From: Balanoglossus misakiensis
Lineage: Eukaryota > Animalia > Hemichordata
Assembly (NCBI GenBank): GCA_040954595.2
Contig: CM082593.2
Coordinates: forward strand, 7,662,043-7,726,042
Length of the DNA: 64,000 bases
Direction of reading: 5' to 3'
Shown in pieces: positions 1 to 34,772 of this stretch (the first letter of the stretch is position 1; each line of letters begins with the position of its first letter). Under the pieces are notes generated by a model that saw nothing but the letters and a program-made list of their open reading frames with translations, had not been told where the DNA came from and ran no database searches. The position numbers were made by a program, and so were the translations under genes.

Positions 1-3000
1 GAGGAATGCCTTCGGTGGGTAGATTGGTACGATTTATACCTTTCTTTCTCGTCTTCCCAAGCAGTTGTCGGCAAATCGTTCATATTTTTGTTCGGTTGGC
101 GTTCACTCAATGATGAATAGGCAGACGTGTTGTACTGTGGTCTACGACGCCGACTATAGTGCGGCGAAATAGCCTCGGTATCGGACATAGCGATGGATGT
201 ATCTTCGCCAATGATGGCGTCAATTTTGCCGTAATATTTGGGCATTTTCATAGCTTTCTTGGTCGGCTGGAATTGTGGTTTTCTGACGACTTCACCCGTT
301 GCGCGCGCTGGTGCCGGTACACCTTCGTTGCTGTAGTAACGATTGTTCTTGGGTGAATGTTTACGTCTGGTTTGATATCCCTCGGTATCACTATAGTAAC
401 TGGTGTTGGCGTGACCGTTGTAATAATGGCAGCTATCCACATCACTGTAATACTCGTTCCCGCGTGTGCTGTGAGGAGCGTACGTAACATTCCAGTTATC
501 CGTACCGACGCCCTTGTAGTTAGTAGGAGATACAAATTGTCGCTTGCTGCCATGGCGACCAGAATGGCCTCCAGTGCCGTTGAAATGGGGTGAGCTGCCG
601 TGGGGGCTTGTACGGCTAATATACCGCCGACATGGTTCTTCTGTGTCCGTGAAATACTTCTCTCCCTCAAAATTCTTCGAACCTGCCGTGCCGTTATATT
701 GCTGTATATTTGCCAGGCTAACTCTGTTATTTGGTGAAGTAATAATCGGCTGGTCTTCAGCGTCGCCGTAATATTGGTAGTCAGATCCGACGTGTCCTGA
801 AATGAGCACTGACTGTGGTAGCTCATCTCTTCGAGTGCGGCTCCTTGCGTGTGTGTTGAGCGGCAAACTGCCGTGCTGCCCCGACGAATTCAGGGCACTC
901 TTTCTAGATTTCGCCGGCGACCGCGAAAATCTCTGCCGCGTGTAATTCTGTGTGAACACTTCGCCATCGCTGAAATAAGCGGAGGTGTCGCCTCTAGATC
1001 GATGAGAACCAGTGCGAGATTTCATGTCCCTGCTTTTGGCGTCATATTCGAGGCGACCGTAGTACCCGGGCACTCGCGTCGGGCTTTTCATCGGCTGAAA
1101 CTGGGGCTCCCGAACGACATCCGCTTTTCGCACCGTCGATGTCGTTCGGGAGCTCTCGGTTGACGCGATCGACTCGACATCGCCCTCTTCCGGATTGCAA
1201 GAAAACAGATGAGCTTTGGTGAGCGGGTTGCGAATAACGACCGCTTTATGCACAGGTGACGTTTGCTTTGAAAATGGCCGCGGCGGGCGAGTGTAAGGAT
1301 CTGAGAACGCGCTCGTCGGTCTTCGCTGTTCTCGAGATTCTGATTCTTCGGATAATTTTCCATATACGTCTTCATATGTTGCACTTGGAAAGGGCGTCAC
1401 CGATTTTGTTTCAAACCCTTTATTCTTGTTACTGCTCACATGGTTTCTCCTCACACCGTACAAGTTTGGTTCGGACGGTTTCTGCTGACTCAGGTAAGAT
1501 GTAAAAGAGCTGGCTTTTGAGTCACTGTCGATGACGTCACTGGCGTCTGCTTCGTTCCGTTTGGTTTCCCCAAATACGAGCGAACTGACGTGCCTGACAA
1601 TATTATCGTTGTGGTCTGTCTTGTCCGGGGAACCGTCCCTGCCCGGTTCTGCTTCGATGTAAAACGAAGACAAGTCGTCGAATTTTTGTTGGATAGCTGC
1701 AATCTGTTCTTCGGTCATCACGTTTGTCGGTGCGCCGCCGCCATTTTCTTCTCTGGTTGGATCTTGCAGTTGGAACGTGAACGACGAACTGTGCTGGGGC
1801 CAGGCGGTTTTCTCTCCTTGTCCACTTCGCTCGTTTCGATTGAGAGTAATCATGACAGACGAGGTCGACCGCAGTGTTGATGACGATGACTGTATCTGTT
1901 GACCGGGAGAAGATTCTACGCGTTTGCTCTTTGTGACATCGGACCGAAAGTAATCTGTTCCCCTGCCCCTGGAAACAAATAAAAGGATAGACATGTTTTG
2001 TTTTGTTTTTCAGTTTTATCGAGGGTAGTATAATAATCTGGAACGTAAGTCCAGGAAAAGTAAGTATAACAGCGCCACCAAACAGGCTTTGGTCAAAATT
2101 CTAACTGCGGGATCGAATTCAAGGTAACGTTATCCGTCGTTTTATGGCAACTAATGGTGCATAATTTATGAAAGTACATGTATAATATATAAACATTAAA
2201 AAAGCTAATTTAGGCTATCTAAAGTAGTATTTAGCTTATTTTTTGCACAGCTTCGTAGCATTATTTTGCCGATGGTCCGTAACGTCCAAAAACCAAAACA
2301 CTGGTACATTATACAAGTAACGTGTTTAGTGTATGCATTTCACCTAGGTGTCGGATTTTTCTGTTTGACAAAGCATCTTGTGGGGCAAGTTGCCATTAGA
2401 AGACTTCAAACTGCGCATATGTACTTCGAATCAGAGGCTATTCATTCCTGTTGACTGTGAGACCAGCAATTCGACTACGCGACTGACAGTTGTCTTTGCT
2501 AATCTAATCTGAAAGGTCGAATTCTTCCTCGTGATGGAATAAACACATGGCGAACTGAAGGCTATCAACAGACCCTGTATATCTTGCCTTGCCTGGGTCG
2601 TTAAGTAGACTGAAAGATAATCCCGAGAGAGCAGTTTCATGTATCTTCGCCGGGCAAGGGATATTTATTCGGACAAGGTGACAATCCTCGTTCCTGGTTG
2701 GCACTCTTTGGGCGAGTTTGTGAAATGGTCTTGCAAAGACTTATTATTCACGATTTAATCACAGACAATGTGTTGAAACCCTTTCACGTCTGTCAACTCA
2801 ATTTTACTGGGTGGACCTATGTTTAGATGAAGTTAGAGAAAACGTATTTGGAAAAGTGAATTAAATTTTAAAGGGACAAAGTCGCCTACTGTTGACAAAG
2901 CTTTGGTACCGTTAAAAAAATTATCGACCTGTTCCTTTAAAACTAAATATATATTAGCATAAAATTAAAATCTTATTACCTCGTCAGAGTTAAACCCAGA

Positions 3001-13918: not shown

Positions 13919-16900
13919 TCAAAAACTCGATGTAGAAATTTGTCTTCTGACTGGATGACCACACTTGCAGTAGACAACAGGGCTTCCAAGTGATGAAATT
14001 TCTGTTTTTAGGGGGCAGTTACCGCACTGATACTTTTTCAACTCTGTTACATCAAAAGCATTGCAGCCATTTTGAAAGTTGAAACCAACAAAGAATTCCA
14101 CACGTGTGTGTTCAAATCTCCTTCCATGAAGACTGCCTGCTCTTGGAACAAAGAAGCATTTGATGGTTTCAACGCCCTTCAACTTGCCAATGTCCATGTC
14201 AATTTCACCTGATGTACTTGTCTGACTTTTTCTTATTGTACCAGTCTGTCTGGAAAGAAGGGAGCGCACTTTATCACTCTCTTTCCAAGATCGGGAATCA
14301 TAGTTCCATTCGCCCAGTTCAAATTTATGAACAAGACGACGAATACCACTTCTTGATTCCACACCAAGCCATTCATTAGTACGACGTGGTTTGCTAACAA
14401 ACCGTTTTGCCCTTTCTAAAAGGTCCTTAAATCTCAAAGATTCAGCAAAACATTCTCTGGAACCTGACTGACCTTTGCTACCTAGTGCAAGCACAGTTAG
14501 CAATACATAACAGTAGTAGATTGCATAGGGTGAGTTAAACCTATCATGCCACAGCCGAACTCTCCTCAGTACTTCTTCTATTGCATAGACTTTTGACACC
14601 AGTTTGTGTCTTACAGCATGAAGCCATTCTTTCATATCTTCATCAATTGTTTTGACTGGTATACCTCTATCAAACACATCCTCCATATTTTCCTCATACA
14701 AAGAAATGATGTCTTCTAAATCACCCAGTTCGCTTACATTATCCATGTGGAGTTGAGCTCTTGTCTGCACATTCCTGTTGTATTTTATCCTGTATGCTGC
14801 AATTTTGCCCCTCCTCCCATTAATGGAACTTGTGTCATACCATGAACATAATGCTAGATTAACATCCTCGAACAAGACGTAATACCAATCTCGACATTTG
14901 AAAAATTGTTCGCTTACAGGTAATCCATCATAGCATTCTCGCAGAAGCATATCAATAGCTGAGAGTGATTCCTCAACAAACGAATCTACACAAGCTCCTT
15001 TCACAAAAGTGTGATATCCACCTTCAAAATTCTTCTCAATGAACTCAAGCAATTGGAGCCTTACTTCCATTTCATGAACATATGAGACTTCATCTTCGAA
15101 ACCCTCTTTGGTGTACTCTCTACACTTCTGAAATGCATCGCACGCTATCTTTGTCAAGTGAATGGACTCACTAACCAATCCTTCCAAGTCACTGTCTTTC
15201 TGAAAATTACTGGTTGTCCCCAATCTGCCAATTAACTTTGACAGCTCTCGCACAAAGACCAGGCCAAGCATGTCATATATACGTGTTAACTGAACATCCT
15301 TTAAGCCTTCATCTGAGCATGCAGAGCTCTCACTTGAATCCAGACCAGATGCCCCGCGGTGGCTTGCATGCTTACTACATTCCTCCAGCCTGATTTTAAT
15401 GGCTTCATACATAAGCTCCTTTGCTTTTTGAAAGTCCTCTCTCTCATTGGCATAGAACCTGCCAAGATGAGCAAGTGAACTGGGATCTTTCGGAAAGTTT
15501 TGTGACAAGAGGCTGAGTACATGTAGTCTTTCAGTGAACGGGGGTTTGGAGACAATATCCATAATAATTCGTGAATAAGTCGAACGCTTGAAGTGACTTA
15601 TTTGCCCACTGTAGTGAGTTTCTCTGTTGTTGCGGAAGAAGAAAGTGGCTCTCATTATGTTCATTATTTCAGGAGATATTGCCTGAATTTTGTCATGCCT
15701 ACATCCTGCTTCTTCAATAAACTGACATGCAAAGTTCTCAAGACCCTTCCTAGCATCCAATGAAAGTGATACTGAACTTTCTCTTTTATGCTCACTTGGG
15801 CAAAGAATTTGTTCTAATATTTCTTTAGCCACAGCATGCAGATTAATTCTCCAACCATTCTCAGTTTCACATACAAACTTCTTGGCCTTAAACGGAAGCT
15901 TTACCACAGACTTTTCACTGACTTCCAGTATTCTACAGAAAAACTGCCCTGGAATATGCATTTGGCCATAGTAATACACAAATGCCAGATATCCTATGAC
16001 CCGTTGCCATGCTGTCAATTCTTTGGATGGGTCAATATTCAGGTACCCTGCAACATACGACTGTGTGCCTCTAAATTCATAGTCATATGCAGTCAATCCA
16101 AATTCATACACGCAATGGGGATTTCTTCCCTGTGTCACATCAGTCAAGAGCTCCTTCAACCCTAGTTTTGCTTTCCGTGGACAATTTCCAGAAAATACTT
16201 TCTCAAGACATATTGCTTCGTTGCCACTAACTTCATCTTTAAGCCATACCTTATTACCCTGGACTGCCTTTGTAATGGGACCAACATATCGTTGGACATA
16301 GAGAATGACAACTGGTACTTCTCTTGAGCATACATTCAACAACCGTGTCACGCCAGAGATATCCTTGTAAATAAGGCTGTCTATGAGGACAAGCACTGGT
16401 AAGTAGGTTTTATCGTGGAGCCAACTGATTCTTTGAGCAACCTCAGCCATCATAACTTCTGAGGATTCAGTAGTAACACAGACACATGGGCAGATTCTTT
16501 CTAAATGTATGTCCCATAGCAACCTTCTTCCAACAGTGGTACCCCCAGACCCTGGAGCATGGTATAGTGAGCTAACAAGTGACCTGCCTTTCCTGATATT
16601 GTCTTGAACAAGGTATTTCAGCTTGGAATATATCTCTCTTTCTATATCAAAAAGATGTAGTTTGACCTCATACCACGGTAAAAAACCTCCCCTGAGGAAT
16701 TCTTTCCCCAAATCTTCCTCATTTACGCTTGCGGACTTGTGATCATAGTCCAAGTATAAGACATCAAAGAATTCTTTCAGCCAGGCAGCATCTTTGGGGG
16801 CAATCTGTGTCTCAATCATCTGCTCTTCCATGAGTGCGGGTAGTTTAAACAGGCCCCCCTGCTTTTCATCTTTCAGTTCTTCCCACAATCTTAGACAGAG

Positions 16901-19900
16901 ATACTCAAATGGAATGTCATGTACGGATTCCTGTGGAACCTCTAGGTATTCAAAGTTGCGTTGTAGCATAGGTAATGCTTTACTAGACAATGAATCCTTA
17001 CTGTAACAAAACACCGACTTCAGAGCTGACATCCTCTCATCCAATTTCTCCAAAATGATTTTTAGACATGGCAGTAACATTTCAGATGAATACCACAATA
17101 CAACCACTGTCACAGGCTTTCTCCTGTGGGTAAATTCTGCTAACTTCTGACAATGTTGTTCAATCAATATGCCAATGGCTTTTCGCCATTCTCGCTCGCT
17201 AGTAGGGTTTCCTTCACGTGTATTGGAACCATTGACAAAGCACCACTCAGTTGCTTTATCAGATAACTCTTTCGGGTGATCATTACAATTTGAAATGTAA
17301 AGACTTCTTTTGTTCCTAAGTGGTTCTTCACAAACGGAAAACAATCCACTCTCACGACTTTCAGGGTCTAAGTCAAACACCTTTACCCATGGTATATTAC
17401 TAAGGGCAGCAACATATGGTGTCTCAATAGAACACGGGCCTGTTATCAAACAATATGCCCTGCCATCTTCAAAGTTATCTACACTTTCCATAAATTTTCC
17501 CCAAATATCAGATTTTATGCCAACATCTAAAGCAAACCCTGATGGACAGCCCTTTGTAAACCATGAATACACTTTCTGATTCTCCTCGGGGGATTTGGCA
17601 ACTTTGATCCCCGATCTAGAATCTCTGTAGAATACATCATTCAGTTCCCACAATCTATTACGATGACATTTTGTGGAATAAATCGGTGCTGTTGATGTAT
17701 GCGAGTTTGAAATTATGATCACCCCTACAGTCTTGCCATCTACCTGCTTTTCAATGTATTTGAAGGTTGGCCTTTCATTGAAAAAGCTGTCATTGAACAA
17801 GCTTTGGTAATATTCATCATCTGTAGACTGACTTAGACCAAGCATATCATGTGGTGGATGGGACTTTTCAACAACACCAAGAATAATGTAACTTATAGCA
17901 TGATTTGGAGTGTTCCAAAAGCTAACAAGATCTCTCATGAATTCCCCATCTTCATCCGTACGGTAACTGCCAGCTTTGTACTGTATATAGCTATTTTCAC
18001 AGTGTCTAAGCAAATGAGAAAATGTTTCCTCACATGTCAGATTGTAGTCTTCCAGTATGTTAATTACATCCTCATTTGATTCATCTTTCAATAACTGGCT
18101 TTCATCAACCCTTTGTGGCACATTTAAGGAGACATTATGTGCTCTTATACAAATCGGGCCTTGTTGTTGAACAGATATGCCCATACATGCCTGTTGCTCT
18201 GTGCTAGTTGTAGGAACATATGCAAATTGTTCAACCACACTTTGACCCTTCATGCCATACTGGTTTTTAATCTTAACTGCTGATGATGGTGCTTTTGCCA
18301 GTTTTTGCTTTCTCGTATATCTCTTCCAAGCATATTTGGGTTTACCATTGCTACCAATATTTGATTTTGACTTTTTACTATACATCCCCTTTCCCGTCCC
18401 GCCCCTGCCTTTTCTATATGAAGGAATTTTACTTTGCATCACTTTCCCTTCCAATTTGTGACTTTTAGGAATGCCAGATTTATGAGGTTTCTGTTTTCGC
18501 ACAACCTCCCATTCACAAGAGTCTTTATCAGAATCAGAATCATCTTCAAATTTGGAACTATCAACACTTATACTACAGTTATCCTCAGATTCCTCATCTC
18601 TGTAATCTGTATCATCAGAATCATTCTCTTCAATGGAAAAATCTTCCGTTTCACTATACACATGAGATGTATTTTGGGATTCTATTGCAGGCATTTTCTT
18701 TTTTTGACGTCGGTATAATGCATGAACTACAACGCTTTGCCCTCTTTGAGCCAAAGTAAACCACTTTGGATGTTTTTCAAGAAAAGACTTCATACCCCCA
18801 TATCCGTGATCTTTAAACTTCTGTTTGTCTTTACCACTGCACTCTTTGTCAAAACTTGTTGCAAGTTCATTCAGGGTCATTGGTTTTGCATCTGGACGAT
18901 TTTCTGGGTTAACCAAGGAGTGAAGCAGCAGTAACAAATCTCCTTCTGTCATACCCGAAGATTTCCTCTGTCGAGCATCTGGAAATCCCACAACAATAGC
19001 TGAATTTTAGATTACACAGTCTCATTGAAACTCGGCCACAAATGGTGGACAATAGCATATTGCAATTGAAAGAGTATACGTGATGTACATATATATATAT
19101 TCATCCACCCTGAAGTAATTATTGTTACTCCTACGTAACGATTGCCCCTTTCATATTTTTTTTATGTTTGTAGTCACAAATTTAAAAAATATTTGGGAGC
19201 TGTTCTTAAAGAGTATTGACTTCAAAGAAATGTTTCAGTTTTACCATCATTTTGTTTTTTTTATGTTATTTTAAAGGAGTATGACTCACCCTATAGTCAG
19301 TTAGTTATAAAACATATTCAATGAAGAATGTGCAACAAAATCAATTTTCCTGAACATTTGTACAGCTAGCAAACAAGCTCTGTTTTCAAGAGAGCTTAAG
19401 TTGCCTTCTGAAAGAGGCACTTGGGATTACAATTGTGGCTTATGAATCTACTTGAAAACAAAATTCATCTTACCTGATTGATGACTAGCAGCTGCATCAG
19501 CTTGTCCAGCACTTTGTACAATGGTATTGTGGTCACCAACTTGAACATTTTCACAGTCTTGTATGACAAACATGGGTAGTTTTAACTGAGCACTTACTGC
19601 AAGACAAATTTAAAGTGCATCATGTAGAAGATAAATTGTTTCCATCTTGGGAATATCCTTCCAATATTACAGTTAAAGGTATATGGTCACGTATGGAAAT
19701 TTAGCTACAGACAGTTATCATGGCAAATTGAGATCTAGACAATTCTAGATTTTCATTGGGTGGCACACACGAATAAAAGAGAGCCATCATATGTTCTTTA
19801 GAAAACTTAAATACGCCATTTTGCCATTTATGGACATATTTAAATTGGAGGTGACTATGTACCTTTAACACATCCTTTATTCATTCAGCAATGTCACCAA

Positions 19901-22574
19901 TTACCAAGGACTTCTGCAATATGCAACAACAATCTACTGAATTAAACTTTTTACCAAAGTGTAAACAGCAATAATATGTTGCGATTACATTCTTCAAGTT
20001 GACGTAAACAGATACCAGACCAACTAAGTAGACCTTAGGGGTACTACACAGAGAAAGTTACATCAGTAAAGCAGTAAATACCTGTGGGCAAACTTGAACC
20101 GGTAGTCTCTTGATATCTTTCTCCATCTGCAGCGTCTAAAAAAATAAACAATAAACATTCCTTTCAATGAAAATCTATGAAAAACATTCCTTTCATACTT
20201 TAAATACCATGAACGCCATAAAATCAATGAATTTATAAATTAAACCACTTGTATTTACTGCTTTGTAACACCTATCGAAATCGACCACACCAAAATTTTA
20301 AGACAATGACAGTTACCTGCTACTTGTAGGTTATAGATTCCAAAGTTTTTAAAATTTGATTACATTAAAACAATTCCCCACTTATTAAATATCAACAACA
20401 GTTTATGATTCAGACTATAAAGCTTCAAAATTCAAGAGTGTTTAAATTTACAAATTACCTTTATCTGCACCACCTTTTAATCCGATATGATACCACACAT
20501 TGCTTTCAGCAATGACTTGTTGCTCTTTCAGTGTCAGTCCATCAACCAGCTGTGACAATCAAAACACAGGAAATATAGTTTTTTTCTTTATTGTGAAACT
20601 TTGCACATCAGAAAGATGACAAAATTGTTTTTAGAAATAATTCATAGGGAAAATACTATAATTATATTAATTGCTGTTATTGAGATTCACTGACCTTTTT
20701 GCCATTGCCAAGGAAAAAACTTCCACTCACAGAAACCTGTCGCTCATATTTCACAAGTTTCCGCAGACAGCTGGCAGAATCTTGTGGTTTTACAGAAACT
20801 GGAAAAATTCCACCTGGTAAGCCATGCAAATACAGTGTAAATGTCCTGCAAGGAGAAAAATCATCTTGCTGTGAGGAACGTTTCCCATACTGTTGCAAGT
20901 GAAGATAAGTCTTGGTAATTCTTACATTTTGATGATATACATGTATTATGAAGTAAAAGAAAGTATGCGTTAGATACAGCCCACATGAACTAATTATTCC
21001 CAACAACTGCTAGAAAATACTCAGTTTACTGTAAAAGTGCTGTCATTTTCTCCTAAAATAGGACAAGGATATCTAAAGAAAATTTCCTAATGAACAGACT
21101 TTGTTATATTGCTATAACACATTAAGAGTTATCTTACCTACAATTGACACTGCTGTCATGGTGATTATTCTCAACCATACACATAATACAAATTTCTCCT
21201 TTGGATTTAATAATCACAATTATTCATGCAGGCATTACTAAAATATAAATAAAAACAAACAACAATGAAATCAATGACACATATAACCATTTTATGAAGT
21301 GTACATGCTCTTGAATTTGAGTGGTAACCCTGTGGTATTCACATATGAAATGTTTAAGTACACTTCTGTAATTTGGAAATTACAATCTGGAAAATGCAGT
21401 ATTTATAAATTCTGCAAGTCTTATGTGTGATTAGGAGGGTCAATATAAATCAATTACCACGCCCCCTCAGGTTGTAAAGCTCTGGCAAACCGCACATAAT
21501 CCCCTACATTAACGCTCTCTGGGGTTACACTGACTCACGGTCACTCCACGCAGTGATTGACCACAGGGGGTGCTCCCTCCATGCTTTTATTGTGTGTTTG
21601 TTTGTTTTGTTGTCGTAATTGATTGGCATAATAAACAAATACATATTTGCCCGGAGAGGTTTCCCCAGACCCTCTTTCTGGAGTGCCCAACGGAAGAAGC
21701 AGAGGGCTCTGGGTAACCGAGACTATATCCCAAACATAATTTGCATTTGTGACCTCAGTAACCGCTCAATGACCTTACAAGAACAAGCCAATTATTAACA
21801 TAAAACTGATTTGAACACACATACATTATTCGGCCAACTGAACACACACAATTCGAGAATCTAGTAAAGTTAATTTCAGACTACATTAAGTTAATTCTAA
21901 CACATTAAAATTATTATAACATAGTTTTGACGAGAGCGGGCCTTTCAATTTAAATGTTACTATGTTGATTTGAAAAAAATGACGCAATGGCTTATGACGC
22001 AGCTCGCAGCCATGCAATAGTTGTGGAGTTGGGGTAGGATTTAGGCTAAGGATCGGCTTAAATTACCCTGACCCCGACCCTAACCATTCTATCCGACCCT
22101 AACCTTATTATTAGAACTGATTTGATGCCTGATTATACCCTTGCCTAACGTACCTAATAAACCCTGGGTATAAATCCCACGGACCGCGCCACAATTGCTA
22201 GCTAGGGACAAACCGAAAGTAAAAAAAAAGTGTTTGAAACACTTCTACGTAACATAATGCACCAAGATTCTGATCTATGTCGTTTGCATATAATCGTTGG
22301 CAACGAGCACATCCATTTTATCTCTGTATCAACATGAAACATCGGAAATCATTTTTTATGGTTGACCAAGGCAACTTGTGTGAGTAATATGGTATAAATT
22401 GGAAAGCAGACATGCGCACAAATAAAGGGCCCGCTATCCGGGATACGTCACGTACAATGTCGAGTACACTGCAATTGGACCTTTTTGTGTGCCATGGGCA
22501 CAGTCAAAAGCTCCAGACACATAAAAGACTGAGACTTACCTCCGCAAGCACACGGACGCCACTATTTCCGCCAT
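13919..22574 (-). CDS. SAMD9-family STAND NTPase with N-terminal ubiquitin-like, RHIM-like and LOTUS-like modules (~1844 aa)
   Basis: Exons 22574-22540, 20845-20695, 20549-20459, 20135-20082, 19596-19474 and 18999-13919. All introns are GT-AG with compatible phases (2,0,1,1,1); total 5535 nt. SAMD9-type motifs in the last exon: ENSYIQYK...SFWNT...YIILGV (AlbA_2/Schlafen-like), IPWVKVFDLDPES (SIR2-like), LYHAPGSGGTTVGRRLLWDI (Lys-less Walker A, cf. SAMD9 LYHHPGCGGTT), LPVLVLID (Walker B), AHLGRFY (TPR region), VEFFVGFNFQNGCNAFDV (OB-fold end). The last exon is secure; the first exon is less certain. Confidence 0.85.
19673..19868. mobile_element. TTAA-flanked MITE family B (AGGTATA..GTCAC termini), in an intron of the SAMD9-like gene
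   Basis: TTAAAGGTATATGGTCAC ... GTGACTATGTACCTTTAA. Homologous copies at 57183-57375 (inverted) and ~9335-9500; degenerate copy at ~44510-44630. Confidence 0.8.
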
Positions 22575-22660
22575 CGCGCCATCTTTGTCAGGTTTTCTCG
22601 GTATTTAGTACCGTAACCTCGTTTTCGATTTGCGTTTTGTGCCAGGTACAACAGTCTCTA
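22575..22660 (-). promoter_or_regulatory. Probable promoter / 5' region of the SAMD9-like gene
   Basis: CpG-richer patch with AAGATGGCG (YY1-type motif), directly upstream of a short exon that ends in a consensus GAG|GTAAGT donor at 22540/22539. Confidence 0.45.
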
Positions 22661-22825
22661 TGACTCCACACTCCTACGTGCCTTGAAAATCAGTCTGAGA
22701 CCTTTCCTCATATTTTGCTCGATTGTGACCTTGCAAAATTGTGAATGAAAGGGCGAAAATGTCTAAAATGTGACATTCCAAATGGCCGCCAATCCATATG
22801 TGTTAACTCTATACAGTTGAATTAA

Positions 22826-25800
22826 CACTTTCACTGCGTAGTTAATATATGCTAATGTATTCCTGTGTGTAGTTTCCTATGGTAAATTTAACTAATAAAC
22901 AATGTTTTACTTTACCCTCTCTATCTCTTGTAATATGAAAGTATATGCAACGATATTTCCAGCAAGTATATTTTATAAGACAACCAACATAATAAAACTG
23001 AAAAATGGTCACATGACCATTAATTGGTCATGTGACACTGGCAGCCATAATGGATTTCTGTCGAAATATGGTAAAAACAACAGATATTGTAATATAAGTG
23101 ACTGAAATACTGTATTTAATTCATTGTATCACAGCTGACAGACAAACATAGTCAAAAACAACTTCCCCCTGTATAAAAGGGAATAACAAGTGACTTTTGA
23201 GCAAGAAATTTGATCAAATTTATTAATGGACCATAAAAACAATTATCAAATTAAAGCTGCAAGCAGCATTGTCGGGCCCAAGCGCTGATCTTGAATTATA
23301 TATGCACAGTATGAATGAGAAGAAACATAATTTTCTATCGGGTGTATTATCTCATGACATAACAAGGGTGTATGTATTTTTGCTGCTGAAATAGGGTAAA
23401 GTAGGTCAAAGGTCACCTGAGGTCATCCAACATTTGGGCAAAAATTTTTGACCCATGCTGGGCCATGTCCAACAAAAACCAAAACTCTAGCTCTATTGGT
23501 TCGCGTGTAATTAGGTATGTGCATATTTAATGAGGTCAGCAGGTGTCACAGGTGAGCCAAAAATTTGGCTTTACATTTAGGTCCCATCCTGCCAAATGCC
23601 AAGGCTGTATCTGCTCTGGATGTTGAGATATGCGAAAGTAGGTCAAAGGTCACCAGAGGTCACCCAACATTTGGGCAAAAAATTTTGATCCCATACAGGT
23701 CCATGTCCAACAAAAACCAAACCTCTAGCTCTATTGGTTCGCCTGTAATTAGCTATGCACATAATTAATGAGGTAAGCAGAGGTCAAAGGGGTCATGGAA
23801 AGTAGCAAAATATTTTGATCACACACTTATCCACATGCATCAAAAACCAAACATCTAGCCCTATAGGTTAGCCTGGAATTAGATATGCAGAAATAATAAC
23901 ATGTGAAAAGTAGGTCAAAGGTCATGTGAAAAATCGCCAAAAATTTGTAACATATTTTAGTCACATGACGATTGATATCCATACAAAGAATTTCTATGCT
24001 ATCAATGTTTAGAGTAGAAAAAGGAATTTCAATTTTTCAATGCTTTTTACAAAATCCAATATGGCCGCCATAATCTTCCACCAATCACAATGTTCTTTGC
24101 AAACTTGATAGACAGCAGTGTAGTGACCATACTCGCCGAATCTTGTGACTCAGTTATCGCCCGTTCTGGAGAAGAAGATTTGGGGAGTTTTACTATGGTT
24201 TTTCGAAAATCCAATATGGCCGCCATAATCTTCGACCAATCAAAATGATCTTCGCAAACTTGATAGACCTCAGTTAGGTGACCCCATACCCCAAACCGCG
24301 TGACTCTGTTATCGCCGGTTCTGGAGAAGAAGATTTTTGAAATTTTGACCAGATTTCAGAAAAACAACTGTAGCAAAAAAACTGCAACATTGACAGCAAA
24401 ATATCCAATTACAAAAATGATGGGCAGAAGGTACACTACCAGCACGCCAAATCTGAAGTAAATCTGACTTGTAGTTTCTGAGATCTGAGATTTGCATTTT
24501 TTCAGAAAATCCAATATGGCCGCCATGTCACGTGACTAATTAAAAATTCATGGGTTCAATGCACGACTACTCATTGACCTTGACCACTGTAGCAAGTTTG
24601 AGAACTGTACCTGCAGCGGTGTCTGAGATCTAGAGCGATAAAAAATGGACAGGAGAATAAAGAAAGAAAGAAAGAAAGAATTAAAGCTGCGAGCAGCATT
24701 GTCGGGCCCAAGCGCTGATCTTGAATTATATATGCACAGTATGAATGAGAAGAAACAGAATTTTCTATCGGATGTATTATCTCATGACATAACAAGGATG
24801 TGTGTATTTTTGCTGCTGAATTAGGGTGAAGCAGGTCAAAGGTCATCTGAGGTCACCCAGCATTTGGGCAATTTTTTTTATCCATACTGGTCCATGTCCA
24901 ACAAAAACCAAAACTCTAGCTCTATTGGTTCGCCTGTAATTAGGTATGTACATATTTAATGAGGTCAGCAGGTGTTACAGGTGACCCAAAAATGTGGCTT
25001 TACATTTTGGTCCCATCCTACCAAATGCCATGGCTGTATCTGCTCTGGATGCTGAGATATGCGAAAGTAGGTCAAAGGTCACCAGAGGTTACCCAACATT
25101 TGGGCAAAAAATTTTGATCCCATACTGGTCCATGTCCAACAAAAACAAAACCTCTAGCTCTATTGGTTCGCCTGTAATTAGTTATGCACATAATTAATGA
25201 GGTCAGCAGAGGTCAAAGGGGTCATGAAAAGTAGCAAAATATTTTGAGCACACACTAATCCACATGCATCAAAAACCAAACGTCTAGCCCTATAGGTTAG
25301 CCTGGAATTAGATATGCAGAAATAATAACGCGTGATAAGTAGGTCAAAGGTCATGTGAAAAATCGCCAAAAAATTGTAACATATTTTAGTCACCTGACGA
25401 TTGATATCCATAAAAAGAATTTGTATGCTATGAATTTTTAGACTAGAAAAAGGAATTTCAATTTGTCACTGCTTTTTACAAAATCCAATATGGCCGCCAT
25501 AATCTTCGACCAATCACAATGCTCTTTGCGAACTTGATAGACATCAGTGTAGTGACCATACTCCCCGAATCTTGCGACTCAGTCATCACCCGTTCTGGAG
25601 AAGAAGATTTTTGCAGTTTTACTATGGTTTTTCGAAAATCCAATATGGCCGCCATAATCTTCGACCAATCACAATGATCTTCGCAAACTTGATAGATATC
25701 AGTTAGGTGACCACATACCCCAAACCCCGTTACTCGGTTATCACTGGTTCTGAAGAAGAAGATTTTTGAAATTTAAGCCAGATTTCAGAAAAAAAATTGT

Positions 25801-28800
25801 AGCAAAAAAACTGCAACTTTTACAGCATAATTTCCGATTACAAAAATGATGGGCAGAAGGTAGTCTACCGGCATGCCAAATTTGAAGTCGATCTGACTTG
25901 TAGTTTCTGAGATCTGAGATTTGCATTTTTTTCAGAAAATCCAATATGGCCGCCAGGTCACGTGACTAATTAAGTATTCACAAGTCACTGCACATCTACT
26001 CATTGACCTTGACCACTGTAGCAAGTTTGAGCAGTGTACCTGCAGTAGTTTCAGAGATCTCGTTGGCCGAAGAATTGACAGGAGAATAAAGAAAGAAAGA
26101 AAGAAAGAAAGAATTAAAGCTGCAAGCAGCATTGTCCGGGCCCAAGCTCTATTATCTGATCTGATATTAGATATGCACATAATTAATGAGTAGAAACATA
26201 ATGCTCTGTTTTATCCCATGAAATATCAAGGTTATATCTATGTTTGGTGTTGATATAGTGTAAAGTAGGTCAAAGGTCTCCCAGGGGTCACCCACAATTT
26301 GGGCAGAAAATTTTGACCCATAGTGGTCCATGTCCAACAAAAACCAGACCTCTAGCCCTTTTGGTTAGCCTGGAATTAGGTATGCACATAAATAATGAGT
26401 TAAGCAGGTGTCACAGGTGATCCAAAACTTTGGCTTTTCATTATGGCCCCATACCTCCAAACGCCAAGGCTGTATCTGCTGTGGATGTCGAGATATGCAA
26501 AAGTAGGTCAAAGGTCACCCAAGGTCACCCAACATTTGGGCAAAATATTTTGACCCCATACTGGTTCATGTATAACAAAAACAAAACCTCAAGGTCTATT
26601 GGTTCATCATTAATTAGGTATGTACATATTTAATGAGGTCAGCAGAGGTCAAAGGGGTCATGAGAAGTAGCAAAATTTTTTGATCACATACAAATCCACA
26701 TACATCAAAAACCAAACTTATAGCCCTATTGGTTAGCCTGGAATTAGATATGCAGAAAAATGATGCGTCAAAAGTAGGTCAAAGGTCATTGCCAAAATTA
26801 CCAAAATATTTATAGCTTATTCTTGTCATATGATGATTCATATCCATAAAAAGAATATCTGTGCTATCAATTATTAGGCTAGAAAGGGAATTTTTACTTT
26901 TTAATCATTTTTCACAAAATCCAATATGGCCGCCATAATCTTCGACCAATCACATTCATCTTCGCAAACTTGATAGACATCTGTTTAATGACCATACACA
27001 CCAAATCTTGTGACTCGGTTATCGCCGGTTCTTGAGTAGAAGATTTTTCAAATTTTACTAGGGTTTTTCGAAAATCCAATATGGCCGCCATAATCTTGGA
27101 CCAATCACTATGATCTTCGCAAACTTGATAGACATCAGTTAGGTGACCACATACCCCAAACCCCGTGTCTCGGTTATCACCGGTTCTGGAGAAGAAGATT
27201 TTTGAAATTTAGGCCAGATTTCAGAAAAAAAATTGTAGCAAAAAAACGGCAACTTTGTCAGCATAATTTCCAATTACAAAAATGATGGGCAGAAGGTAGT
27301 CTACCAGCATGCCAAATTTGAAGTCGATCTGACTTGTAGTTTCTGAGATCTGAGATTTGCATTTTTTCAGAAAATCCAAGATGGCCGCCATGTCACGTGA
27401 CTAATTAAGTATTCACAAGTCACTGCACATCTACTCATTGACCTTGACCACTGTAGCAAGTTTGAGAACTGTACCTGCAGCGGTGTTTGAGATCTAGAGC
27501 GATAAAGAATGGAACCAAGAATAAAGAAAGAAAGAAAGACAGATTAAAGCTGCAAGCAGCATTGTCCGGGCCCAAGCTCTATTATCTGATCTGATGCTGA
27601 TATAGTGTTAAGTAGGTCAAAGGTCACCCGAGGTCACCCAACATTTGGGCAAAATATTTTGACCCGATACTGGTCCATGTATAACAAAAACAAAACCTCT
27701 AGGTCTATTGGTTCATCTGTAATTAGGTATGTGCATATTTAATGAGGTCAGCAGAGGTCAAAGGGGTCATGAAAAGTAGCAAAAATTTTTGATCACATAC
27801 AAATCCACATACATCAAAAACCAAAATGATAGCCTTAAAGGTTAGCCTGAAATTAGATATGCAGAAAAATGATGCGTCAAAAGTAGGTCAAAGGTCATTG
27901 CCAAAATTACCAAAATATTTATAGCTTATTCTTGGCATATGATGATTCATATCCATAAAAAGAATTTCTGTGCTATCAATTTTTAGGCTAGAAAGGGAAT
28001 TTTTACTTTTTAATTGTTTTTCACAAAATCCAATATGGCCGCCATATTCTTCGACCAATCACATTCCTCTTCGCAAACTTGATAGACATCTGTTTAATGA
28101 CCACACACACCAAATCTTGTGACTCAGTTATCGCCGGTTCTTGAGAAGAAGATTTTTGAAATTTTACTAGGTTTTTCGAAAATCCAATATGGCCGCCATA
28201 ATCTTCGACCAATCACAATGATCTTCGCAAACATGATAGACCTCAGTTTGGTGACCACATACCCCAAACCGCGTGACTCGGTTATCGCCGGTTCTGGAGA
28301 AGAAGATTTTTGAAATTTTGACCAGATTTCAGAAAAACAACTGTAGCAAAAAAACTGCAACATTGACAGCATAATTTCCAATTACAAAAATGATGGGCAG
28401 AAGATAGTCTACCTGCACGCCAAATTTGAAGTCGATCTGACTTGTAGTTTCTGAGATCTGAGATTTGCATTTTTTCAGAAAATCCAAGATGGCCGCCAGG
28501 TCACGTGACTAATTAAAAATTCAAGGGTTCAATGCACGACTACTCATTGACCTTGACCACTGTAGCAAGTTTGAGAAGTGTACCTGCAGCAGTGTCTGAG
28601 ATCTAGAGCGACAAAGAATTGACATAAGAATAAAGAAAGAAAGACTGAAAAATTCCAACGAAACCAATAGGGCCCAAGCCTGGCTTGGCTTGGGCCCTAA
28701 TCATGCCCACCATTTACATGTATACATGTTTAAAATCTGAGAAAGAAATATAGATTATTAGTGAAAAGGTGAATGATTGAACTTGTGAATAAATAATAAT

Positions 28801-29772
28801 AATAAAATAAATTAATTAAGTAATTTATTAAATACTCTACGTTTTAATGAATTGCAAGTTGAAGAAATCAAGGTTGGTAAATATGAATATACACACATTT
28901 AAAAAAAATTCATTAGCATAGTACTGTTTTGGCAATTCATTTCAAATGGATATAATACTCTGACAACATAGACTTCTGGCAAAGTCCCATCAAGATTTGC
29001 AAAGAAACCTACGCCTTCATTTAATTCAGTGAAGTAGGCATCTAGCGAAATCTTGACCGGAAGGGCAACTCATCAATTGTAGGGTTGTCAAAAAATTGTG
29101 CGGTGTACATATCAGTTTGCTCTGACAATGACATCAACTCAAACACATCACCAGGAAAGAACAGCTGAAAAAAGTCAACCGGTGCAAAGTCATCAGTGTC
29201 AACTAATAAACCTTAGCGACGATCGTATACAGACAACCAGTCCGGTGTGTAATTGTCATTTACGTCATACAAAACCCACCGCGTGTCACCATCAACGTTA
29301 CGACGTCCGAGAACATGACAAAAACCCTCCCTCTCTCTCTGTCTCTACTCTGTTGTCTCCGTGTCTGGCTTCTATTTCTGGTTCTATGATGTTGTTGTCC
29401 GTAATTTGGCTTCCGCTATCGCTATGATCGCTGTCACTATCCTGAAAGACTTGTTCAAGAACTTCGTCGGCATCAAACTTTGCCCATGTCGCCATTTTTA
29501 AATACCAAGTGAATGAAAAATATGATCGGAGCGACCTAAAATCAGCTGTATAAGGAAACCCTTTGATGACAAAATCGACTTGATTGTTTACAATACATAT
29601 GCGCATGCTCAATTAGAGTTGACCCCTGTCATATATATAGCCATACAAAATGAGTAAATAAGCAACGAACATAAAATAGAACAGACCAAGTAACGGACGC
29701 GATCTTGGCGCATTTATGCGCCTCCCGCATTCTGACTGCCGGCGCAGAAAATGCCCTCCCGCAGCGAAAGTG
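22826..29772 (-). mobile_element. Decayed piggyBac-type DNA transposon carrying a nested insertion
   Basis: TTAA at 22822-25 and 29773-76 flanks 13-bp TIRs CACTTTCACTGCG / CGCAGCGAAAGTG (1 mismatch). Minus-strand remnants include an acidic N-terminus MATWAKFDADEVLEQVFQDSDSD (~29495-29430) and a stop-interrupted segment SRFR*MPTSLN*MKA*VSLQILMGLCQK (~28970-29060) resembling the piggyBac EMK.F.GL.ILMG block. Confidence 0.8.
23250..28700. mobile_element. Four head-to-tail ~1.43-kb units of a non-autonomous Helentron/HINE-like element
   Basis: Units start ATTAAAGCTGC(A/G)AGCAGCATTGTC(C)GGGCCCAAGC at 23250, 24680, 26113 and 27543; unit 4 is internally deleted. Each ends in (AAGA)n and contains internal sub-repeats (AAAATCCAATATGGCCGCC; AGGTCAAAGGTCA). 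There is one terminal hairpin, TAGGGCCCAAGCC-TGGCTT-GGCTTGGGCCCTA, at 28668-28699. The repeat is certain; the class is inferred. Confidence 0.75.
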
Positions 29773-32700
29773 TTAAATTAAGTAGGGCCTAATGATAATT
29801 CGTGAAAAGGATGGTGAGCGCTCCCTTTTCTTCTTTGTCAAAATTAACAATCTCCTCACATAGAAACGAAAATTATGGATGATAAGTAGACCTAACAGAC
29901 AAACATAACTTGAATGTGATGTCCTGATTCCACTAGACTAAGACATTTCAAAGAGAAATTAAAACATACACGTATATGGATTGCGTCAAACGTTCAATGC
30001 ATGATAAAAAAAATGCAATTCCTCTAGAATGGGGCGTGGCTGGCATCTCGTGGCTGGCCCTCAAAGCTTCTATTCAGAGGAATTATAATGGGAAAATACA
30101 GTAGATAGGCGGTAGACATTCATCACAAGACAATCGAGATGGCAGCGGTTCAAGGCGAGGTAGGTCCAAATATTTCTACGCCATTTTAAATGTATAAAAA
30201 CGAAAAGGGGGCATTCCATTGATAACACCCGGGCCGAAAGACGAAATGAAAAGGGACAATGTCAGTAATAATAATTTAATAAACTTAAATATTTCAACAA
30301 GTTTCTCCTGTTAACCTAAGAGAAGTAGTATGGCCCGTTCTGCGTTCCGGCTCAACATGACTGACGTGCGTTTGAGACGTATGTGACAATATAACCCCAA
30401 GCCAAATTTGTAGATATTTGATTTGGTGCGATCTGATCTTTCGTGTGCATGTGAGTTATTCTGGTCATAGCTTCCCCAGTGTCAAATCTGACAACGTAGA
30501 ATATTTATCCTTGTAAATTTATTCAGATTTTCGCTGTATTTAGATATTTGACCCTCCAATAGTAGTCGAGAAAGCATGATATCTCGGGATTGATCCGCCT
30601 TTTCTATTTCGCAGACTGTGTAATTCAGGTCATGCTGAAGGCGGACACATTTTTTTCTTTAATTTACCCACTCGTCGATTTGAGCTTACACCAGTACAGA
30701 AATATTAAGGCTTTCAACGAACAAACCTATATACGAGAATTCACAATAATTGAGAATAGCTATGAGTACGTCAGATTCTGAACCATTCCAAAAAAATCGT
30801 AAATTTGTGTAAGCTATTGATTTAAGCATTAAATAATTGTTTTATTGGTAAGTCTTGTGGTCTCCTCTTTCCGTTAATAATTGTCTGTGTAGAATTTCAA
30901 AAATCGGCGAATTAAAATGGTCCGTGAGATGACGTTTATGTCGACAACAGGACTGAACATGCTATGACGTCGACAGCCCATTGAGCTCTGCGCTTTGTCT
31001 CAGAAGAATATTTTCAAGAATGGTGGGATGTGTCCTTTGCTGTATTTTCACCAGGGCGGCATATGACCGTATGGTGGGCATAAAGAGCATTGGAAACCAC
31101 AACATATACGGAACCAATCCAGGCGCTAGCAAAGCCAGTCGGACCTCAGAATCACGTTAGCATCCTTAACAGTTTCACCCCAGTTCCATCTATAGAGGTC
31201 CAACCTTGCCATAGAAAACAGTGGGTTTGGATTGAACCATGGTGGTGAGTGGGTTATTTAAGAGAGATGCGCACAGCACACTTGTTTCTGGGCGTGAGTT
31301 CCGATCATTTACTATAATCCCATAAAAGCACGCCATCAAACATCCACCCGGACACACACAACTAATAAGCACAGAAAGAATATTCGAACGTTCTATATTC
31401 ATTTACAGAAACACGTCGTAAAACTGCAGGGGGAACCACTCTTCTTATGAAATGTGTCGCTGCATTAAAGGGACAAAGCCACTCATTTTAAACATTTTGG
31501 TTGTCACTTTAGTTTCGTTTGATGGATTATAGATATTGACGTGCTCACTGAAATATTCCCAATCACCAGTTGATACAAATCAAATCACGCCCTGTATATG
31601 GGTATTGCCAATCAATGTTACCACTACCATGCAATTTTTGGTATGGACCTAAAAAGATTGAGTCAGGGAAATATCCATGCGCTATGTTCTTACACAGGAT
31701 ATGAGTTTAACTGTGAACAACTGGCGATTTAGCATATTTCAGATAGAACATAAATAATCTATCAAGAGACACTGACCAAATGAATACGTCAAAATTAAGC
31801 GGCTTTGCCCCTTTAACGTTTTATTGCTTCCAAATCTAACAACAATCCACATATTAAAAATACTAGTCAAACATCATTGAAGCAACCCTCATCACTCTAC
31901 TTTGGTCCAATCCTACCATGTTAAAGTTTCAGTGGCTACGCCTTTATGTTCACGATTTTAGTCTCGAACTAACGTTCAGTCACGTGACTGATCCTTATTG
32001 CTCTTGTACAGAGCAGAGAACGTATGATGTGCGGGTAATTTGTGTCCATTCGCAGCGACTATTAAAACTGTAAACTAAAATATCATTACTGTAATGAGCA
32101 CTAGTGTAGCAATTACGCGGTAGTTTTGGCATATTAGGGGATAGATGCTTGGGTGATAACTTTGTGGGGCAGTACAAAAAGGCGCAACCACCGGGCTTCA
32201 ACAATCGGTTGGACCTATCACATAGTCTATTTTCGAATTTTCAGATAATATGCAAATTTTCACGTAATATGCAAATTTTCAAAGGACAGGAAAAAGGAGT
32301 CTAATAACACATCATACCGTAAAACATCGGAAATGAAAACTACGCTGAAATGTGTAATTGGAATAAAATATTTCTAATAAAACAAAAACCTAATTCTCTT
32401 GATGTTTTTGGTGACGGTTTGTGACGGTGCGGCAGCTGCAAGGGTGTTGATTTTAATACAGATATCTGATACGGTTTGATTCCTGAATTTATTATACACA
32501 AGATATACGTGTTTGAAAAGCACAAATAATTGAACTTAATGATTGAAAATAATCTTTCTTTGGCAAATTCTATTTTTATGCATGGACAGGATAATGAAAA
32601 CATCTATCATATAAACAATCACAAAATAATATTCTATTTTCCTACAGAAACCAATCTTCAAATAATCAGAAATATTTCTGCATTGGCAGTAAGCAATATT

Positions 32701-33839
32701 TCCTACAATTCTCACAAAGCATATAAATGAGATATTTGAATAATGATTGTCACAAAGTTGTTCATTTGAATAAACAAAACCGATTTTACTAAAGAGATCT
32801 TTGACACAGGTTTTAAACCCTCAGAACCATGCAAATTGGTTATTTGTGAACGTTTAATCAAAATATAGCGGAACAAAGTCGTGGAAATCTAAGCTTTGTC
32901 TAAATTATTTAAAATGCCGCACAGGAAATTCTTACGCTGTTCACCAATCGTTATCGGCCTTTCAGATAAACGTAAGCCAATCAAAATCTGCTCTACGTTT
33001 GTATCTTGGCGTGAATATTGCGGTGGCTTAAATTTGCTGCAAACGTTATACTATGAACACAGTCGAGTGAAATGTTTCTTTTAGGTTGAGAATCTTTTAC
33101 CGATGTCAACTGAGTTAAACATCGGATGCCGTTGTATATAGTCTGGCAAAATTTGGTGAAACCTTCGGAGTCGGAAAGTTGACAAAACTGATGTCCCTTC
33201 TTCTCCAAAATGCCACCAAGGGTAACGTCACGATAATTTCTGGAAAGTCCAAACCCATGCACACTGACAAGTTTGGCTCTGTTTACTCCATAGAAGTTTA
33301 AAGACGAACAACTTTATAGTTTTTCATTTTAGATGTTTCGTGTTTTTAGATTTACAGCCAAATGTTTCTCTGGGTGCAGTTTGTTCTTGATCATACCAAG
33401 GTCTCATCTGGTAACAGGGATTACAAAGTCAACTCAAAATCACAAATTGTTCCCATCCACTGCCACTACAGGTTAAGACTACGATAAAGAGCCAATGCTA
33501 CAACATTTATTAGCTGTATTGCTTCTGTAAGATCATGGTTGAATTTTCCGTTTTTCTTGTCCCATGAAGCAGTGCAAATAATTCATGAACTAACGCATCA
33601 TAAACTGAATTCGGAACCGACTACTATTTTCAAAGGGATGTCTACCGCGTGACAGGGGACTACGCCTTGCATGTAACTGAGTTGGGACGGAAATGATCTG
33701 GGATTGGCGACAAGGTTGACAAATGAACGACTATTTTTTGGTCCTAGGCGATGTCACGCGCACGCTCGGTTCACTTGCAATGGCCGTTTGTGTGATTCTT
33801 GTTGAAAACTTGGAGGGGGAACTATAGGCGACTGCATGT

Positions 33840-34741
33840 CTAAAGTTCTTGACCATACTGGTCGTCGTCTTGCATGTACATCTGCAGAACCCTGAAGGAT
33901 CTCGACTGAGAACCGGGATTGGAGTAGCCATGGTAATGCATTTCACCGCCTGGTTGCTGACCAATGTATCGGGAGCTCGCTTCGCCGGGGCGGGGTGTTG
34001 GCCTCTTGTCGTGGACGGTCTGGTACACAGATGATCCGTGGTCCACGAAACCTCGGTTACCCCTGAAAGTGTTCAGATGTTTGCCCTGAATGCATATCTT
34101 AGAAAACAAAACAAATAAACAAGCAAGAAAACAAACAAACAAACAAACAAACAAACACTCAGACAGACAGACAGACAGACAGGTAATCGAACTTAGCGCT
34201 AAAGCTTCACAACATTCTTGAAAACGTAATCCGGTAATATGGTAGATTAAACTTAAGAAATAACACAGGTCATTCGAAAAAGACTATAAAGAAGGATTAT
34301 TTGGTAATATGGCAGATGTCAATGCGCTCCCGTGATTTTCATGTTTAATTAATGAAACTATGTGAAAACAGCGCAGCTAGCTCACCCTCCAATAACGCCT
34401 GCCTGCCCAGGCTCAACCATATCAGACGTCTGTTCCTGGAACGCGTCGGCAACATTGCCAGCTGAATATAAACTCACTGGAGAGTTATACTGCAGATGGA
34501 CAACTTGAGCTGTGGGACTGAGATGTTCCTAGTGAAGGAAATAAGAAAATGACAACATAGATTCTGTGTTCCCATTGGATCAACGCTCAATCAGACGGTG
34601 AACCTCAAGCACAAGATGTATGCAATTCACGCCTAAGAGACAATAAACTATATGAAGTTGTGTTGTAATTAGAATACATCTGATGGAGATCAGTCCGTAT
34701 GTGATGTCTGTATGGAAGACAGACAGACAGACAGCGGACAA

Positions 34742-34772
<31 letters not shown>

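Follow-up and report, generated by a model that had tools for sequence, protein, structure and literature searches.

Whether a SAMD9-like protein of a hemichordate would act as a nuclease or signal through a RHIM is the question raised by a 64,000-nucleotide stretch of the Balanoglossus misakiensis genome (assembly GCA_040954595.2, contig CM082593.2, positions 7,662,043 to 7,726,042 of the forward strand; referred to here as the window). An open reading frame (ORF) of 1695 codons on its minus strand (19006-13919 in the ORF listing of the window) was interpreted in a preliminary description as the main part of an immune sensor in which a ubiquitin-like domain (UBL), a RHIM and a LOTUS-like domain precede a SAMD9-like core. 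The follow-up analysis led to the reading, held at a probability of about 0.6, that the gene encodes a SAMD9-family STAND switch that has exchanged tRNA cleavage for RHIM clustering as its output, the likely downstream route being RIPK1-like/NF-kB signalling. RHIM clustering was taken as the likely output because the AlbA_2 nuclease domain is predicted to be dead. Published papers are cited by PubMed Central (PMC) number.

SAMD9-family core and AlbA_2 catalytic site

A profile built from 13 rows matched human SAMD9 with an E-value of 1.6e-40 over the region from AlbA_2 to OB, and the core order of AlbA_2, SIR2-like, STAND, TPR and OB domains was that of the SAMD9 family in the broad sense. The Walker A motif was of the GGT/S type with an upstream His (H965 to T973), and the sensor Arg and the His of the winged-helix domain (WHD) were also present, in agreement with the SAMD9-family assignment made earlier. 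The module order that had been proposed (UBL-RHIM-LOTUS-AlbA_2-SIR2-like-P-loop-TPR-OB-Zn ribbon) was likewise supported, although a Pfam scan of the window gave no direct TPR or OB match, both being placed through homologues or profile alignment. No SAM domain was found by Pfam in the window or in the homologues scanned. The domains were located as follows.

18731..18928, minus strand: LOTUS/OST-HTH-like winged helix (Pfam WH_Egal E 4e-4, OST-HTH E 0.058, both below cut-off)
17615..17998, minus strand: AlbA_2/Schlafen domain (Pfam PF04326 E 7e-7, above cut-off)
16877..17464, minus strand: SIR2-like domain, approximate limits (aligns to the matching region of human SAMD9; conserved motifs)
15797..16705, minus strand: STAND nucleotide-binding oligomerisation domain, approximate (phmmer to SAMD9 E 2e-6; motifs compared with PMC13600222)
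16535-16561, minus strand: Walker A, HxPGxGGT; the other STAND motifs are Walker B D1025, sensor R1055 and WHD H1206
14387..15559, minus strand: helical/TPR region, approximate (alignment to homologues with TPR matches and to SAMD9)
14042..14374, minus strand: OB-fold, approximate (second profile stretch matches the SAMD9 C terminus; weak CSD match in homologue P0128)
13961..14026, minus strand: C-terminal four-cysteine Zn ribbon (from the sequence)

A full-library search with the Ptychodera flava protein XP_070545015.1 (P0001) gave 772 matches at E <= 0.001, of which the best 150 were listed, and FastTree was run on the 156 rows with enough core from a set of 159 non-redundant rows. The tree was split into 82 animal-clade and 74 prokaryote-like rows (SH support 99); the source organism was identified, the window aside, for 21 animal rows and 2 prokaryotic rows, and the other labels were inferred. 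The animal clade (SH support 99) included the Lingula protein XP_013415988.1 (P0018), which is listed in Table S1 of PMC5445408. The Zn-ribbon pattern was present in 51 of the 82 animal-clade rows versus 0 of the 74 prokaryote-like rows. Human SAMD9 scored 28.8 bits, compared to up to ~207 bits for prokaryotic relatives with P0001 as the query, and this low score hints at a branch separate from vertebrate SAMD9; the trees were built without vertebrate SAMD9 sequences. When IQ-TREE was applied to 13 rows, the window, Ptychodera and lamprey proteins were placed together (94/97). The hemichordate and lamprey rows grouped apart from the echinoderms, contrary to the species tree, which may reflect old paralogues or a tree artefact. 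Among the prokaryote-like relatives, P0013, P0014 and P0145 carried CHAT, TCAD9 or metallophosphoesterase domains instead of AlbA_2.

The best PDB match of the AlbA_2 profile was CbCash (E 2e-4), in which the triad E17-D22-K24 is required for cleavage and a D22N change abolishes it (PMC13462974). In the window the triad reads E486-Q491-K493, the Gln codon lying at 17981-17983. The catalytic site was mapped by means of CbCash and Pfam; its correspondence to SAMD9 E196, which is strictly conserved in ~370 mammalian SAMD9/9L proteins (PMC12331169), was not obtained by direct SAMD9 alignment. AlbA_2 was detected in 69 of the 74 prokaryote-like rows and in 44 of the 82 animal rows, and four rows of each were dropped for gaps. 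At the ungapped site, the full triad was observed in 64/65 prokaryote-like versus 0/40 animal-clade rows, which makes a pseudo-nuclease the most likely state of AlbA_2 in the animal clade. A single animal row (1/40, Lingula) kept the second catalytic acid, and more of the triad was lost in the lamprey and echinoderms than in the window. A triad pattern scored independently of the alignment was found in 64/69 prokaryote-like rows. AlbA_2 was undetected in the other 38 of the 82 animal rows, some of which are fragments; the Haliotis protein P0067 kept the RHIM and LOTUS-like domain with AlbA_2 undetected. The AlbA_2 region alone gave no match in the PDB, its model (pLDDT, a confidence score, of 50) gave no Foldseek match at E <= 0.001, and in PADLOC this region alone was matched, to PDC-S50.

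These counts bear on an alternative in which the RHIM is an input: the protein would be recruited onto an upstream RHIM amyloid, in the manner of HET-S, after which the AlbA_2 or SIR2-like domain, still active or rewired, would act. Such a scheme would account for the three acids and the lysine that remain in the window AlbA_2 and for the 60% identity of this domain to Ptychodera, and tRNA cleavage is the output of SAMD9 (PMC12331169). It was nevertheless considered unlikely, given the absence of the full triad from the animal rows, its further erosion in lamprey and echinoderms, the RHIM-bearing members in which AlbA_2 was undetected, and the effector-end position of the amyloid motif in fungal STANDs.

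RHIM and LOTUS-like domains

The RHIM exon matched Pfam PF12721 with an E-value of 7e-4 and 19.5 bits, 0.5 bit below the gathering cut-off of 20. The motif lies within a linker and has the tetrad VQVG in the window and VQIG in Ptychodera and lamprey, with a flanking hydrophobic/Asn pattern; the only PDB match of the exon was RIPK3 (E 0.59). Since 0.39 chance occurrences of the bare motif are expected per window, the RHIM assignment is carried by conservation. Identity to the Ptychodera isoform P0004 was 63% over the RHIM, comparable to the UBL (60%), LOTUS-like (65%), AlbA_2 (60%), SIR2-like (75%) and P-loop (72%) regions, versus 24-39% over the linkers. With a canonical tetrad and conservation above that of the linkers, the RHIM proposed in the preliminary description was upheld despite a Pfam score just below the cut-off. 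No second RHIM-like motif, and no paralogue of the gene, was found within the window, and a prediction of a four-copy RHIM complex was uninformative (score 0.01). A second beta-rich, Asn/Val/Ile-rich stretch at ~18160-18220 (minus strand) precedes AlbA_2 in the window, Ptychodera and lamprey; it was not scored as a RHIM by the searches.

Pfam RHIM matches, all below the cut-off, were obtained for the window, Ptychodera, Petromyzon, Sinanodonta (2 proteins), Solemya, Potamilus and Haliotis. A local RHIM profile also picked up Liolophura, the Dreissena and Mya motifs being weaker; at >=8 bits it matched 8/80 N-terminal regions (6 of them training rows), 0/159 core regions and 0/1600 shuffles. 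The N-terminal position was occupied by a RHIM in the window, Ptychodera, Petromyzon, Sinanodonta, Potamilus, Solemya, Haliotis and Liolophura, by a Death domain in Amphiura, Asterias, Antedon and Styela, and by a CARD in Lingula and Gigantopelta. Because many database models begin at the LOTUS-like domain, the number of RHIMs is probably underestimated. The sensor had first been described as an invertebrate UBL-RHIM-LOTUS protein; the RHIM-LOTUS combination proved to be broader, extending to molluscs and lamprey, and the UBL narrower, being found in the window and Ptychodera only.

Short forms that cover the RHIM region were also seen. At the Dreissena locus (P0143, P0166, P0167), isoform X3 (169 aa) ends right after VQIG and may be a short RHIM-only regulator, and the Ptychodera UBL paralogue P0021 (176 aa) ends inside the RHIM, which may be due to a frameshift, an assembly error or a real short form. 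Such forms would fit a role in negative regulation, or as a decoy, in which RHIM amyloids are capped and the UBL provides a tie to proteasomal turnover; Pirk is a known example of an inhibitor with a RHIM. It may be, however, that the short forms are artefacts of annotation, and a switch core of ~1200 aa conserved across phyla exceeds the needs of a decoy, which makes this role quite improbable.

For the LOTUS-like domain, OST-HTH (PF12872) scored 13.7 bits in the window, whereas the homologous region of Amphiura P0003 reached 27.5 bits against a cut-off of 23.8; no LOTUS structure was matched when a profile with this region was searched against the PDB. A function tied to RNA granules or to the germ line, as in transposon surveillance, with the RHIM as a condensation motif and no RIPK link, is suggested by the wide occurrence of the LOTUS-like domain across the clade and by the organisation of germ granules by LOTUS proteins. 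It appears very doubtful, because the RHIM exchanges with Death and CARD, both immune adaptors, and the window LOTUS scores below the cut-off. In the lamprey protein P0002, the LOTUS-like domain is joined to AlbA_2 by a long tandem-repeat linker (residues ~220-700).

Gene model and ubiquitin-like domain

The N-terminal modules are joined to the large ORF by a six-exon model with AG/GT ends throughout, which yields a stop-free protein of 1844 aa.

22540..22574, minus strand: candidate coding exon 1 (ATG, 11 codons, phase 2 donor; donor score 7.7, the better of two ATG-donor candidates in 20900-33000; CpG-rich stretch)
21138..21178, minus strand: alternative candidate first exon, same phase (donor score 5.0)
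20695..20845, minus strand: exon 2, first part of the UBL, residues 12-62 (tblastn to P0001, 49% identity, E 2.6e-12; the orthologous domain matches ubiquitin)
20459..20549, minus strand: exon 3, second part of the UBL, L-K-G-G end at residue 89 (70% to P0001; ungapped to ubiquitin 51-76)
20082..20135, minus strand: exon 4, linker (AG/GT ends, phase fit; weak donor, 1.2)
19474..19596, minus strand: exon 5, RHIM, tetrad VQVG at residues 128-131, first base 19546 (Pfam PF12721 E 7e-4; 68% to P0001)
13919..18999, minus strand: exon 6, 5081 nt, LOTUS-like domain to stop (ORF; acceptor, phase)

The splice acceptor claimed just upstream of the large ORF, at 18999, fitted in sequence and phase, and the in-frame joining of five small upstream exons stood as well: P0001 aligned by tblastn to exons 2, 3, 5 and 6 with the order kept. 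In each of exons 2, 3 and 5 only the required frame was open; in exon 4 all three were. No homology to Ptychodera was found for exon 4, exon 1 was only 25% identical and thus without homology support, and no counterpart of the start of the Ptychodera protein was found for exon 1. That the small exons are unspliced to the large ORF in this species, the protein starting inside exon 6, would be compatible with the weak exon 4 donor and with the sequence data at the locus, which are DNA contigs only and show no spliced read. This explanation is highly unlikely, as the Ptychodera RefSeq isoforms connect identical modules in identical order and the RHIM is connected to LOTUS in lamprey and molluscs.

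The ORF was identical to DNA contigs from 2/3 runs, among the longest pieces listed; these come from one sample that is possibly the source itself and are not independent. No joint that skips an intron was found in the DNA contigs at the locus, a result with no bearing on expression. One contig joint omits 1794 bases inside the ORF (16111-17906; one contig, side 37), and the introns contain high-copy repeats at 19670-19870 and 21560-21730, with contig depth ~1000x that of the flanks. The Ptychodera P0001 and Amphiura P0003 models stop just past the P-loop, owing to frameshifts, assembly errors or real short forms.

When the Ptychodera UBL was compared to the PDB, 59 of the 60 matches listed belonged to the ubiquitin family, with the register kept to the GG, and all six matches of window exon 3 were to ubiquitin, ungapped to residues 51-76. 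E-values against single ubiquitin were weak (0.026-0.44), the best E-values being inflated by polyubiquitin. Ubiquitin was not found in the Pfam scan of the window exons, although P0021 gave a Pfam ubiquitin E-value of 0.076, and window exon 2 alone gave no PDB match. Single-sequence structure modelling gave a pLDDT of ~25 over the UBL, too low for the beta-grasp fold to be judged, and of 34 for P0001, too low for use; a search of the ESM Atlas with P0001 residues 1-260 gave no usable match. Among the homologue rows scanned, the window and Ptychodera alone gave a match to the UBL profile; when longer proteins with the UBL-RHIM-LOTUS region were sought, P0001 was the only one recovered among 599 candidates, which is weak evidence.

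The L-x-G-G end is kept in both hemichordate UBLs despite their distance from ubiquitin, and the adjoining linker is only 24% identical. At ubiquitin positions 72, 70 and 68, Arg is replaced by Gly, Val by His and His by Trp. R72 and the hydrophobic patch serve E1 binding, and R72 also has a role in deubiquitinase binding. Because R72 is Gly, conjugation of the UBL is unlikely, and a conjugatable ubiquitin-like modifier was rejected. An inhibitor of apoptosis (IAP)-binding motif after the GG was rejected too, as such motifs have Pro at position 3 and none is present there. Once the UBL was removed after the GG, ~30 residues would separate the RHIM from the new terminus, a layout close to that in lamprey, and the odds are about even that a deubiquitinase makes this cut to give a RHIM-first protein like that of the lamprey. 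It is improbable that the UBL is a ubiquitin-mimic tripwire of hemichordates, in which a pathogen deubiquitinase would cut after L-x-G-G and free the RHIM. Should the UBL prove to be a switch that works by cleavage, an animal immune receptor would have an unusual gate in the form of a ubiquitin mimic.

Proposed mechanism and relation to known systems

By analogy with human SAMD9, the resting protein would be closed and ATP-bound, and would open and self-associate when an infection cue is sensed. The LOTUS, pseudo-AlbA_2, OB and Zn-ribbon surfaces may serve to read this cue, which could be a nucleic acid or a product of a virus; a nucleic-acid ligand is suggested by the presence of these domains. 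As RHIM biology elsewhere would predict, the clustered RHIMs might then seed amyloid with a RIPK1-like protein, leading to NF-kB activation or cell death. A RIPK1-like target was proposed because lamprey and zebra-mussel RIPK1 require the RHIM for NF-kB activation, in two animals without ZBP1 (PMC12119088). The coupling to RHIM signalling suggested in the preliminary description was strengthened by the loss of the second acid across the animal clade and by the alternation of RHIM, Death and CARD at one N-terminal position. The "NTPase oligomerisation" invoked there was an extrapolation, because human SAMD9 has been observed only as monomers and dimers that hold ATP with little hydrolysis, higher oligomers having been proposed (PMC13600222).

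Several observations weigh against a RHIM-signalling switch. E486, K493, D508 and E529 are kept in the window AlbA_2, where a single catalytic residue differs; the alignment-free triad pattern was found in 2/44 animal rows; and charge reversal at a basic site is tolerated by rabbit SAMD9 (PMC12331169). The second acid of Walker B is Ser in the window, every Pfam RHIM match is below the 20-bit cut-off, and higher SAMD9 oligomers are proposed rather than observed. Lamprey RIPK1/3 was reported to be without a predicted RHIM domain, though an IQIG site was noted (PMC7179693). The Ptychodera models are shortened (P0001 to the P-loop, P0021 to 176 aa), which points to decay or to an error of assembly, and the changes at R72, H68 and V70 of the UBL may hinder deubiquitinase binding. 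The neighbouring genes found were PDZ- and LIM-domain exons.

The SAMD9 family as defined by Mekhedov, Makarova and Koonin in 2017 (PMC5445408) has the same core of AlbA_2, SIR2-like, GGT-type STAND, TPR and OB domains as the window protein. In that study Lingula XP_013415988.1 was tabulated with a CARD, Death-fold adaptors on invertebrate SAMD9s were published, and adaptor-based death signalling was already predicted. The three supplements searched contain 0 mentions of RHIM, ubiquitin, LOTUS or OST-HTH, none of which is named in the text parts examined; unlike here, loss of the nuclease triad is not discussed in those parts. Human SAMD9/SAMD9L (a tRNA-Phe nuclease; PDB 9zjr, 37id) shares the core, the sensor Arg, the WHD His and a Walker A preceded by His; the window protein differs in having no SAM domain, Gln at the E196 equivalent, and an added RHIM, LOTUS-like domain, UBL and Zn ribbon. 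Bacterial Avs9-like AlbA_2-STAND proteins (PMC12680541) also share the core, and the nearest non-animal relatives of the window protein, likened to them by layout and not by clade, have an intact triad; Avs9-like proteins begin with an active-looking AlbA_2 and have no adaptor and no Zn ribbon.

Fungal NWD2/HET-S and amphioxus BF82280 (PMC4262963) are likewise STAND receptors in which the effector end carries a short amyloid motif. These are likely working analogues, but have a NACHT-type core with repeats, whereas the window protein has a SAMD9-type core with RNA-binding modules. ZBP1 similarly combines nucleic-acid-binding domains with a RHIM upstream of RIPK1/3. The resemblance is a functional analogy only: neither a Z-alpha domain nor homology to ZBP1 was found in the window, and ZBP1 arose in tetrapods (PMC12119088).

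The domain combination had been thought undescribed. This held in part: no description of a RHIM, LOTUS or UBL in the SAMD9 family was found in the literature searched, which did not extend to subscription journals or to Figure 1 and the supplement of PMC4262963 (these two may bear on novelty), and the searched parts of PMC12680541 (0 mentions of RHIM or ubiquitin) and PMC8195603 (0 mentions of SAMD9 or RHIM) agreed. However, many amphioxus RHIM proteins and a RHIM-STAND (PMC4262963), as well as the Death-fold SAMD9s noted above, have been published. Within that scope, no published account was found of a triad-less SAMD9 branch with RHIM and LOTUS in molluscs, hemichordates and lamprey and with a UBL cap in hemichordates.

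A wider evolutionary proposal can be made only tentatively: in an old bilaterian branch (molluscs, hemichordates, lamprey), a bacterial-type tRNA-nuclease sensor may have become a nucleic-acid receptor feeding RHIM-dependent RIPK1 signalling in animals that lack ZBP1. Taken jointly with the hemichordate deubiquitinase tripwire, it becomes rather improbable. The RHIM-clustering reading would link SAMD9 biology to amyloid signalling and provide named candidates for the upstream RHIM receptor in lamprey (XP_032834721) and, with weaker motifs, zebra mussel (Dreissena). It would also be a case of effector switching within one STAND family: the triad is intact in prokaryotes, and animals have lost it but carry a RHIM, Death domain or CARD at the front instead.

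An immune gene cluster around the locus was rejected, since 4/42 ORFs were matched (3 PDZ, 1 LIM or ZASP-like), none of them immune. At 3-2009 (minus strand), an open Ser/Arg-rich frame of 669 aa without a credible Pfam match runs past the window edge. DUF4749, PDZ, and PDZ and LIM exon matches at 33843-36255 (minus strand), 47536-47880 (plus strand) and 57904-58293 (plus strand) suggest two divergent PDZ-LIM-type genes upstream.

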